NCBI RefSeq assembly: GCF_023703775.1
Contig: NZ_CP098514.1
Location: 1,987,998-2,019,997 of the forward strand
Length of the DNA stretch: 32,000 nucleotides
Direction: 5' to 3'
Origin: Haloplanus halophilus
GTDB taxonomy: Archaea; Halobacteriota; Halobacteria; Halobacteriales; Haloferacaceae
A model generated the notes under the pieces. That model searched no databases and had not been told where the DNA came from. It saw nothing but the letters and a program-made list of their open reading frames with translations. Both the position numbers and the translations under genes were made by a program. Below, piece by piece: positions 2,538-11,558 of this stretch (its first letter is position 1; each line of letters opens with the position of its first letter).

Positions 2538-3482
2538 CTACCGTTCGAGCACCGTCGCGCTCGCGCCGACGGCGACTTCGAGGCCGTCGGTGTCGACGAC
2601 CGCCTTCAGGTTCGACCCGCTGGGCGTCGCCTCTTGAGTCCAGCCCTCGGCGTCGCGCCGGAAGACGACCCCGCCGCCGCCGACGGCCAGTCCCGTCTCG
2701 CCGTCCATCTCCACGTCGCGGAGCGAGGCGTCGCCGGTGTCCTCGCGGACCCACTCGGCCCCGTCCCAGTGGTAGACGGTGCCGCCGCCGCCGACGACCG
2801 TCAGGTCGTCCGGGGCGTCGGAGTCGACGCCGTAGAAGTTGTTGTTGGCGTCGGCGATGCCGACCTTCTCCCACGTCGAGCCGTCGTCGGTGACGAACAC
2901 CGTCTTGTTGCCGTCGACGGCGTGCCCCGACCGGGGGCCGTGGAAGTCTACCCCGTTGATGTTCGACCCGCTTCCCGGCGTCACCGAGTTCCACGTCCCG
3001 GTTTCGCCGTTCTCGAAGCTGTAGTAGATCTTCCCGGAGTCGCCGGCGACGTAGACGTTCGCGTCGCCCGCCTCGCCGGTCACGGCCACGTCGTTGAAGT
3101 TGTTGGTCACGTCGTTCGGCGCCGAGTGGTCGTTCAGCCCCCGGGTCCGCACGTCGTACTCGCCGATGGCACCGCTGGAGCCGACGAACCAGAGCCGCTC
3201 GCCGTCGTCGGTCACGTCCGAGCCGTAGAGGTTGTTGCCGTTGCCGGTGGGGCCGCCGCTCGCGGCGATCCGCCACCCGTCGTCCGCGCGCTTGAGGACG
3301 TAGCCACTGCCGCCGACGGCGAACTCGCCGCCGACCGTCGTCTCCACGTCGTACAGGGTCGACCCGACGGGCGTCTCCACGTCCAGCCACACCCGGTCCG
3401 CGGCGCCGATGGTCGGCACGACCGCCAGCGCGGCGGCCGCTGCGCTACTCCGAAGGAACGTTCTGCGGGTCGTCTCGTGCAT
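2538..3482 (-). CDS. Tat-secreted beta-propeller protein (BNR/Ycf48-like blades)
   Basis: ORF 2538-3521. The internal ATG at 3482-3480 gives MHETTRRTFLRSSAAAAALAV (twin-arginine signal). Blade-like segments recur: VGGSGYVLKR, VGSSGAIGEY, VAGDSGKIYYS, VGGGGTVYHWDG, VGGGGVVFRRD. Confidence 0.8.
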   Translation of the reverse strand: MHETTRRTFLRSSAAAAALAVVPTIGAADRVWLDVETPVGSTLYDVETTVGGEFAVGGSGYVLKRADDGWRIAASGGPTGNGNNLYGSDVTDDGERLWFVGSSGAIGEYDVRTRGLNDHSAPNDVTNNFNDVAVTGEAGDANVYVAGDSGKIYYSFENGETGTWNSVTPGSGSNINGVDFHGPRSGHAVDGNKTVFVTDDGSTWEKVGIADANNNFYGVDSDAPDDLTVVGGGGTVYHWDGAEWVREDTGDASLRDVEMDGETGLAVGGGGVVFRRDAEGWTQEATPSGSNLKAVVDTDGLEVAVGASATVLER

Positions 3483-9784: not shown

Positions 9785-10861
9785 TCAGTACGCGTCGGCG
9801 TCGACCAGTCGCGCCGCGATGCGCTGGGCGCCGACCGCCGCGGAGAGCTCCGGCCGCTCCGGCGCCACCGCCTCCACCTCGCGCTGGAGTTCGTCGCTCA
9901 GGCGCTCCTCGAACTCCTCGACGATGCCCGGGATGCAGGCCATCCCGCCCGTGAGGACGATGGGGCGGTCCAGCGCCAGCTGGTAGACCTTGATGTGGTC
10001 GTTGGCGAGTTCCGGCAGGAAGGCGTTCGCCACCTCGTCGACGGCCTCGTCGACGTACTCGTCGACCGCGTCCATGACGCTGCGCTCGATGGTGAACTCG
10101 TGGGAGCCGCCGCCGGGCTGCTGGATCACGTCCGTGAACGGCTCGAAGTCGACGAAGTCGGCGTGTTCCTCCTTGTACTCCCGGGCGGTCGTGGTGTCGA
10201 CGTTGACCCGCCCCTGGGTCTCCTCCTCGACGTAGTTGGCGATGCGGCGGTCGACCTCGTTGCCCGTCACCGCGCCCGTGGTGAAGGGGACGAGCTGCTC
10301 GCCGCGGCGGTACGCCGAGGCTTCGAGGTTCGTCGACCCCAGGTTCACGGTGACGAAGATGTCCTCGACGGCCTCCAGGCCGTCGCCGAGGGCCGGGACC
10401 GACCCGCAGAGCGATTCGGGGTAACTGCGGATCAGCGCCTCGCCGACCGCGCTCCCCTCGATGACCGCCTGCAGGTTCTCCAGCCCTCGCTCGTTGTCGA
10501 TGGTCGGGATGGCGTACACCACCGCGCTGTCCGTCGGGACGTCGTTCGCCTCGATGACCTCCTCGAAGAACGTCGCGGTCAACGCCGCGCGGTCCTCGTC
10601 CTCCGGGAGCCCGGAGCGGAGGGTGTACTGCACGCGGTCGGGGTACTCCGTCGCCGCCTCCTCGCCGTAGAGGACGCGCTCCTCGCCCGTGATGACGTCC
10701 TCGTAGGTGGCGAGGCAGGTGAGCGTCTTGACCGTTCGCAACCCGTCGCCGTCGGGGATGGCGATGACCGTCCGGGTGCTCCCGAGTTTCACGCCGATTG
10801 CCGTCGGCTCGTCGTCGCCTGCGGTCGTCTCGTCGCCCGCGTTTTCGTCGGAGTCGCTCAT
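9785..10861 (-). CDS. Actin-fold (ASKHA) ATPase, MreB/ParM-like; probable haloarchaeal actin homolog (salactin/volactin class)
   Basis: 358 aa. Phosphate-1-like AIGVKLGSTRTV, phosphate-2-like VTVNLGSTNLEAS and adenosine motif IVLTGGMACIPGI are present. The N-terminal tail is acidic. Confidence 0.8.
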   Translation of the reverse strand: MSDSDENAGDETTAGDDEPTAIGVKLGSTRTVIAIPDGDGLRTVKTLTCLATYEDVITGEERVLYGEEAATEYPDRVQYTLRSGLPEDEDRAALTATFFEEVIEANDVPTDSAVVYAIPTIDNERGLENLQAVIEGSAVGEALIRSYPESLCGSVPALGDGLEAVEDIFVTVNLGSTNLEASAYRRGEQLVPFTTGAVTGNEVDRRIANYVEEETQGRVNVDTTTAREYKEEHADFVDFEPFTDVIQQPGGGSHEFTIERSVMDAVDEYVDEAVDEVANAFLPELANDHIKVYQLALDRPIVLTGGMACIPGIVEEFEERLSDELQREVEAVAPERPELSAAVGAQRIAARLVDADAY

Positions 10862-10906
10862 GCGGCCGCGGCTACACGCGGGTGTGGTAAATAAGCACTC
10901 CCGGGG

Positions 10907-11425
10907 TCATCGGCCGGCCAGCGTGGCCAGGCGGGCGACGTAGTGCAGGCTCACCCGGTGGTCGTCCGCGTCGAGGTCGTTGGCCGCGTTCGCCCGCGCG
11001 TCGTCGATGCCCGGGAGGTAGGCGTGGAGCGCCTCGGCCGCGTCGCCGCCGAGCCACCCGACGGACGCGTAGAAGTCCAGGGCGTCGGCCACCGACTCGC
11101 GACCCGCCTGCAACACGAGGAACTCCAGCCACTCGAAGATCAGCGCCTCGGCCGTCAGCGACGCCGGGAGCGCAGGGAGGTACGGGCGCTCGCGCGGTCC
11201 CTCCCGCCCCTCCATCGTGACCAGGTCGCGAGCCACCGACGCCTCGAAGGCGGCGTCCGCCGGCGGGCGGTCCGTCGACCGCTCCCCTTCCGCGGCGTCG
11301 TCGGCCTCCGGGGCCGCGTCGTCGCCCGGCCACCTCGCCTCGCTACGGGGCGACGCGCTACGGGGCGACGCGCCGCTGGCCGCCCGGAGTTCGTCGAGGT
11401 CGTAGTTCCGCGGATCGATGGCCAT
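10907..11425 (-). CDS. ArlD/E (FlaD/E)-domain protein, orphan copy outside an archaellum cluster
   Basis: 172 aa. The N-terminus is MAIDPRNYDLDELR. The C-terminal block is PYLPALPASLTAEALIFEWLEFLVLQAGRESVADALDFYASVGWLGGDAAEALHAYL, which resembles the FlaD/E domain (EWLEFLV ... YY..IGWI pattern) as I recall it. Confidence 0.7.
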   Translation of the reverse strand: MAIDPRNYDLDELRAASGASPRSASPRSEARWPGDDAAPEADDAAEGERSTDRPPADAAFEASVARDLVTMEGREGPRERPYLPALPASLTAEALIFEWLEFLVLQAGRESVADALDFYASVGWLGGDAAEALHAYLPGIDDARANAANDLDADDHRVSLHYVARLATLAGR

Positions 11426-11558
11426 TCGAACGGCGGGGGGTACGGCTGCCGGCGAATTAAACCTTCCCGACAGTCAGCCGCGCGTCCGACGCCGCGCGGG
11501 CCGACCGCCCCTCGACCGGGCGAAATCCTTATCCTGCCGCTCTCGTGGGATACGCTCG

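Follow-up and report, generated by a model that had tools for sequence, protein, structure and literature searches.

To our knowledge, only two haloarchaeal actins have a described behaviour, and salactin is one of them. In Halobacterium salinarum, salactin (VNG0153C) assembles into dynamically unstable filaments, which start at the cell poles and grow by distal addition of subunits, and no polar anchor for them is known (Zheng et al. 2023, PMC10746226). Deletion of the gene leaves soft-agar motility unchanged, and the only reported phenotype concerns DNA distribution at low phosphate (PMC10746226). The same study found poor synteny around the gene and reported no link to motility; its neighbourhood comparison was made within Halobacterium only, the group in which, as described below, salactin and the archaellum gene arlD are separated (PMC10746226). 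In Haloferax volcanii, archaellation depends on ArlD1, which is found with ArlCE at the motor, and deletion of its paralog ArlD2, for which 35% identity to ArlD1 was published, leaves motility normal (Li et al., PMC7534055). ArlD1-GFP foci are polar in more than 97% of cases (PMC13644373). The H. volcanii genes for ArlD, CheD and CheC are HVO_1203, HVO_1205 and HVO_1206 (PMC12091111); csmR (HVO_1209) lies upstream of arlA1/A2, and cirA is HVO_1212 (PMC13286277). ArlD/HVO_1202 has been named as one transcription unit (PMC13286277), and HVO_1201-1225 are co-regulated (PMC10716476).

Two bacterial actin systems resemble the locus described here. In both ParM/ParR and MamK/MamJ, a dynamically unstable actin-like filament is encoded beside a small partner through which it may be attached to a cell structure. 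MamK is the actin subfamily nearest to salactin (NCBIfam MamK match: 35.6 bits; PMC10746226). ArlD, however, is unrelated in sequence or fold to ParR or MamJ, and the Haloplanus pair has no known centromere or organelle cargo; its putative partner is instead part of a rotary motor.

The arlD and salactin genes of Haloplanus halophilus

The window is a 32,000-nt stretch of the Haloplanus halophilus genome. Two open reading frames are arranged in it head to tail on the minus strand, arlD (172 aa; 10907..11425) and salactin (358 aa; 9785..10861), with a spacer of exactly 45 nt (10862-10906), as given in the preliminary description. The nearest named relatives are from Haloplanus species. The surrounding genes are unrelated to the pair and encode PTH2 (pth2), TruD (truD), a DUF3592 membrane protein and an MFS transporter.

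The 358-aa protein, an actin-fold ATPase, covers the whole of the Pfam model PF25229 (positions 1-335 of 335; 623.2 bits, cut-off 27.1) and matches the NCBIfam salactin equivalog NF053533 with 601.2 bits (cut-off 400). Its scores against the MreB, MamK and volactin models are far under the respective cut-offs. Judged by these matches, it belongs to salactin, a known family. In an alignment of 40 orthologs including the window protein, which is 68-93% identical to the other 39, the actin motifs GVKLGSTRT (phosphate-1), NLGSTNLE-type (phosphate-2) and LTGGMACIPG (adenosine) are invariant or nearly so, and residues G23-V32, N173/S176/L179/E180 and T304-P311 are invariant. The three motifs had already been read as those of an actin-superfamily ATPase, with salactin cited as an actin homolog; the relationship stands, but the protein is itself salactin. 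It is encoded in single copy in the Haloplanus genome. The H. salinarum protein is likewise single copy, is assigned to the family over its full length by the same two curated models and shares the actin nucleotide-binding blocks. Its gene is not beside arlD, whereas in Haloplanus and most other genera arlD is directly upstream.

The sole domain of the 172-aa protein is Arch_fla_DE (PF04659; residues 79-167, 83.1 bits, cut-off 21), so the FlaD/E-type C-terminal domain proposed earlier, whose quoted peptides are present in this protein, is borne out by the profile. An N-terminal motif, MxI(D/N)PxxYDxxELR, is followed by an acidic disordered linker and the C-terminal Arch_fla_DE helical bundle. 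In the AlphaFold2 model (pLDDT 82 overall, >90 at residues ~81-140 and 151-170), the conserved motif lies on a short N-terminal helix, the acidic linker is disordered and the helical bundle is predicted with confidence. No solved relative of the Arch_fla_DE domain was found in the PDB by sequence or profile, or by Foldseek at E <=0.001; the best VIA-align matches (Z 5.2) were to generic helical hairpins.

There are three Arch_fla_DE places in the Haloplanus genome, one of them in the window. The first is arlCE (462 aa, FlaC_arch plus Arch_fla_DE). The second is the window gene, which has the small-ArlD format of one Arch_fla_DE domain, ~150-190 aa and no FlaC coiled coil. The third is a diverged ArlD-like gene (G000:C1:2268814-2269839; L115:8814-9839, minus strand; Pfam 33-37 bits) that groups with the Haloferax ArlD2-type genes; it is located at C1:2.2688 Mb, directly upstream of the gene for a 1186-aa Prim-Pol protein. 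Three such places occur in all sampled Haloplanus genomes but one. The arl operon of the genome has the order cheC-cheD-arlCE-arlF/G-arlH-arlI, lacks arlD and lies ~960 kb from the pair.

Maximum-likelihood analysis of 73 Arch_fla_DE regions placed the second Haloferax copies in an ArlD2-type clade (support 100/94), together with the third Haloplanus copy on a long branch. All remaining small ArlDs make up the main group. Among them are the window protein, the Haloferax ArlD whose gene precedes salactin and the ArlD that Halobacterium encodes beside arlCE. The window protein shares 39% identity over its full length with the H. volcanii copy at the HVO_1203 position; with the ArlD2-type second copy of other Haloferax species the figure is only 28-29%. 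Identity between the two H. volcanii copies is 35%, the same figure as that of Li et al., which fits their assignment as ArlD1 and ArlD2; the equation of the copy at the HVO_1203 position with ArlD1 is based on published gene names. By tree position and identity, the 172-aa protein is the ortholog of H. volcanii ArlD (HVO_1203) and not of ArlD2. It had been called an orphan, a label that has to be dropped: the arl operon of this genome is located elsewhere and is without an arlD of its own. A position of arlD outside the operon is usual in Haloferacaceae and Haloarculaceae and is no argument against orthology.

Conservation and joint loss of the pair

Of 109 salactin loci counted in two independent samplings, 93 have a same-strand ArlD-type gene immediately upstream of salactin, as do 23 of 27 further loci that were picked by genus or open-frame length. 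Within a sample of 401 halobacterial genomes, the adjacency extends to at least 31 of 36 salactin-bearing genera in four families, so that the pair, for which a wider neighbourhood comparison had been suggested, is conserved well past close relatives of Haloplanus. In most genomes the only small arlD is the copy by salactin, far from arlCE; in one Haloarcula genome (G064), for instance, the two are located at 1.975 Mb (arlD) and 2.550 Mb (arlCE).

The H. volcanii genome illustrates the same arrangement. The genome that we take to be that of H. volcanii DS2 has the order ArlD2-type gene, histidine kinase, salactin homolog, arlD, cheD, cheC, (gap), csmR, arlA1, arlA2, cirA, in agreement with the published gene numbers. 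Its arlD (1,095,684-1,096,214) is directly upstream of the salactin homolog, HVO_1202. The H. volcanii and Haloplanus pairs are alike in gene order, with 39% (ArlD) and 51% (salactin) identity, but the former lies inside the mot/che supercluster whereas 960 kb separate the latter from the arl operon. The annotation of HVO_1202 is still that of a conserved hypothetical protein, and H. volcanii salactin is unusually diverged. The salactins of H. volcanii (L181:8485-9582) and ~15 other Haloferax genomes give E-values of ~1e-124 to 1e-159 and 51% identity to the window protein, and have altered positions within the phosphate-1 and phosphate-2 blocks. Other Haloferax salactins are closer (E-values of ~1e-170 to 1e-181; ~73% identity to the window protein in three named species).

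On at least three occasions the two genes have come apart. Members of the Halobacterium group have arlD beside arlCE and salactin elsewhere; in Halosimplex, an opposite-strand 3.9-kb gene is inserted between them; and some Natronomonas-type genomes make up the third case. A pyridine-nucleotide oxidoreductase gene allows one ancestral locus to be followed: Halorutilales-type genomes have oxidoreductase-arlD-salactin, a salactin-free family has oxidoreductase-x-arlD-kinase, and the Halobacterium group has oxidoreductase-salactin. From these gene orders the split state of the Halobacterium group looks derived, which would explain the poor synteny noted in the salactin paper among close relatives of H. 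salinarum. In the salactin-free family (f6; L127-L129), arlD is far from arlCE and lies between the oxidoreductase gene and that of a large PAS/GAF histidine kinase; a histidine kinase gene adjoins the pair in Haloferax too.

Several loci depart from the common arrangement. Halovenus carboxidivorans (L099, 1700-10750) has two salactin genes and three arlCE paralogs inside one arl operon, in the order cheD-arlCE-arlF-arlG-salactin-arlCE-arlH-salactin-arlCE. In Haloferax mucosum (L095, 4998-6580), salactin has no ArlD1-type gene upstream and is directly followed by an ArlD2-type gene; the locus looks locally rearranged. At L157 (G400:C1:1545600-1551100), the arlD that precedes salactin is broken up into two ORFs (2633-3258; profile positions 1-68 and 76-169), which is a frameshift or sequencing error. 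A genome of the Haloarculaceae family with a GC content of ~58% (G222) has five salactin-family matches and only one weak Arch_fla_DE match; a very diverged ArlD-like gene lies upstream of one of its salactin copies (L142; G222:C1:108000-122000).

The presence of the two families across genomes is also linked. Among the 401 Halobacteria, salactin is encoded by 196 and Arch_fla_DE by 319. Every one of the 196 salactin-bearing genomes also encodes Arch_fla_DE, and the 82 genomes that lack Arch_fla_DE are all without salactin. In the two salactin-rich families, salactin is absent from 30 of 30 Arch_fla_DE-negative genomes and present in 185 of 210 positive ones, and in three genera where salactin is otherwise usual it is missing from 5 of 5 Arch_fla_DE-negative genomes; these genomes are related and not independent, so that there will have been fewer separate events than the counts indicate, although the direction of the pattern is uniform. 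Four Halorubrum genomes lack both arlD and salactin and retain the large arlCE. In a fifth, arlD is 828 nt from a contig end, and the missing salactin is explained by the break. Arch_fla_DE genes are found without salactin in about 120 of the sampled genomes, from which it follows that the motor role of ArlD does not require salactin.

Promoters and a candidate operator

A TATA box, TTATTTA (10888..10894, minus strand), is located 33 nt upstream of the salactin ATG and is identical in 12 of 12 Haloplanus loci. In these loci both the box and its spacing are constant despite a shifting arlD stop codon, which in two of them overlaps the box region. The TATA-like sequence that the preliminary description reported in the 45-nt gap (GCTTATTTACC) is thus present, and the element stands at a fixed distance from the salactin ATG. 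When 39 non-redundant loci from many genera were compared, 27 had their AT-richest spacer heptamer 30-36 nt ahead of the salactin ATG, a position that fits a leaderless salactin transcript. TTATTTA marks an internal promoter, and the salactin mRNA is probably leaderless. The arlD gene has its own TATA-like sequence, TTTAAT (11456..11461, minus strand), which starts 36 nt upstream of its ATG, and an AAGnTTTAAy box is found 30-40 nt before the arlD start in 24 of 39 non-redundant loci. The arlD stop overlaps the salactin ATG or is 5 nt away from it in Halorubrum and three other genera, which implies a single mRNA there. As salactin has its own promoter in most lineages, co-transcription with arlD is not obligatory, and the two genes remain neighbours even where a shared transcript is unnecessary.

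A palindrome, GTCnGAC-N4-GTCnGAC, precedes the arlD TATA box by about 10 nt; it is well conserved across Haloarculaceae genera and degenerate in Haloplanus. It was recorded upstream of arlD at loci L010, L012, L021, L047, L068, L069, L074, L079, L082 and L090. In the window it takes the imperfect form GTCGGAC-N4-GGCTGAC (11473..11490, minus strand; genome scan with 1 mismatch, G000:C1:1999470), a candidate operator. Exact copies number 3-8 per Haloarcula genome, and the reversed control gave 0. No copy was found near arlCE or che genes, either in the window genome (<=1 mismatch) or in five Haloarcula genomes (exact), and an operator common to arlD and the arl operon was rejected on this ground.

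Proposed coupling of salactin to the archaellum base

The proposed model for the pair is as follows. ArlD, a small cytoplasmic protein of the archaellum motor, and salactin, a polar actin-like filament, would act together at the cell pole. ArlD, alone or within the ArlCDE ring, would be a likely site at which salactin filaments are anchored or started. The salactin filament system would in this way be coupled to the polar motility organelle through ArlD, with both the physical contact and the direction of dependence being part of what is proposed. The Haloplanus genes are a copy of a conserved haloarchaeal arlD-salactin unit; that salactin is functionally coupled to the archaellum base via ArlD in this unit is a reading to which we give about an even chance. 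It draws on the identity of both genes, their adjacency, their joint presence and loss, the distance of most lone small arlD genes from arlCE, the close stop-start spacing in some genera, the H. volcanii locus, the salactin genes inside the Halovenus arl operon and the polar position of both ArlD1-GFP foci and salactin filaments. Weighing against it are the unlinked genes of the Halobacterium group, the genomes with Arch_fla_DE but no salactin, the separate salactin promoter of most lineages and the failure to find fusion proteins. The normal soft-agar motility of the H. salinarum salactin deletion counts against a role for salactin in motility. Prediction of an ArlD (A1) and salactin (A2) complex, run without controls, gave 0.01, 0.60 and 0.18 in three runs against a mark of 0.32. 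Apparent ArlD-salactin fusions in 13 genomes (salactin frames of 514-611 aa) are upstream frame extensions that overlap arlD in another frame. In the protein collection, no protein with both domains was found among longer proteins or among the 120 listed of 688 near-length matches, a weak negative.

The adjacency could also reflect regulation alone, if both proteins are needed in the motile rod-shaped phase and proximity keeps them in one regulon without any contact between them. The entire HVO_1201-1225 cluster, HVO_1202 included, shifts together in several H. volcanii mutants, each gene has its own TATA box, and the conserved palindrome upstream of arlD suggests a dedicated regulator. Separate promoters, however, make adjacency unnecessary, yet it has been kept in four families amid a changing neighbourhood. 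Moreover, it is arlD and no other arl or che gene that accompanies salactin away from the arl operon, and the loss in Halorubrum of just these two genes points to a unit. Regulation alone is a rather unlikely explanation in our view. We think it quite improbable that the genes are merely ancestral haloarchaeal neighbours that were never separated and have no present functional connection. The single ancestral locus traced through the oxidoreductase gene would be expected of such neighbours, as would the three or more separations of the pair; but there is no conservation of the remaining flanking genes, none of the 401 genomes has salactin in the absence of Arch_fla_DE genes, arlD and salactin are lost jointly, and tight stop-start coupling arose in several genera.

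The preliminary description suggested that the 172-aa protein may be a polar anchor or adaptor for the actin filament; in its strict form, this reading would make it an adaptor paralog dedicated to salactin and without a role in the archaellum. The distance of 960 kb to the arl/che cluster, the lack of a motility phenotype in the H. salinarum deletion and the existence in H. volcanii of a paralog, ArlD2, that is dispensable for motility (PMC7534055) all agree with that reading. It is nevertheless very unlikely, since the window protein clusters outside the ArlD2-type clade (100/94) with both the salactin-linked Haloferax copy and the arlCE-linked Halobacterium ArlD, and since the salactin-adjacent H. 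volcanii gene is at the HVO_1203 position, is annotated as ArlD and differs from its paralog to the published extent. In addition, most genomes hold no small arlD other than the salactin-linked one, which must then serve the motor wherever the motor needs ArlD.

Coupling of salactin to the archaellum base may have counterparts outside the Halobacteria, where a 401-genome phylum sample was searched. The salactin model has strong matches in 15 of 15 genomes of one family and 14 of 64 of another. The two families are presumably Methanocellaceae and Archaeoglobaceae. In the first (L165-L169), the salactin homolog adjoins an archaeal A24 prepilin peptidase gene, which is followed by that of an AAA ATPase. 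In the second (L170-L178), there is a conserved trio encoding the actin, a coiled-coil protein with sub-threshold similarity to FlaC and a ParA/MinD ATPase; in one genome this trio is directly behind genes for a PilB3-type ATPase, a PilC-type platform protein and a pilin-like protein. No Arch_fla_DE gene was found next to the salactin homologs in 12 of these loci, searched with a haloarchaeal-ArlD profile and, on selected neighbours only, with Pfam. Across Methanotecta, salactin-family actins might serve type-IV-filament machines, both archaella and pili, as an accessory cytoskeleton whose main task would be to position, anchor or pass on the polar motility organelle, with the DNA-distribution phenotype being secondary. 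This wider proposal is speculative, and we consider it doubtful.

Both families are known, and their association appears to be undescribed in the searchable literature: the publications found there on salactin or HVO_1202 contain no link between the two genes, and none of them calls HVO_1202 an actin. The link to arlD is a concrete and inexpensive hypothesis that can be tested in H. volcanii, for which ArlD1-GFP strains and arlD deletions exist and in which HVO_1202 is annotated as hypothetical. It raises the question of what role the cytoplasmic ArlCDE ring may have besides receiving CheY/CheF signals. The polar anchor of salactin and the need of the cell for this actin form the gap that the conserved link to arlD addresses.
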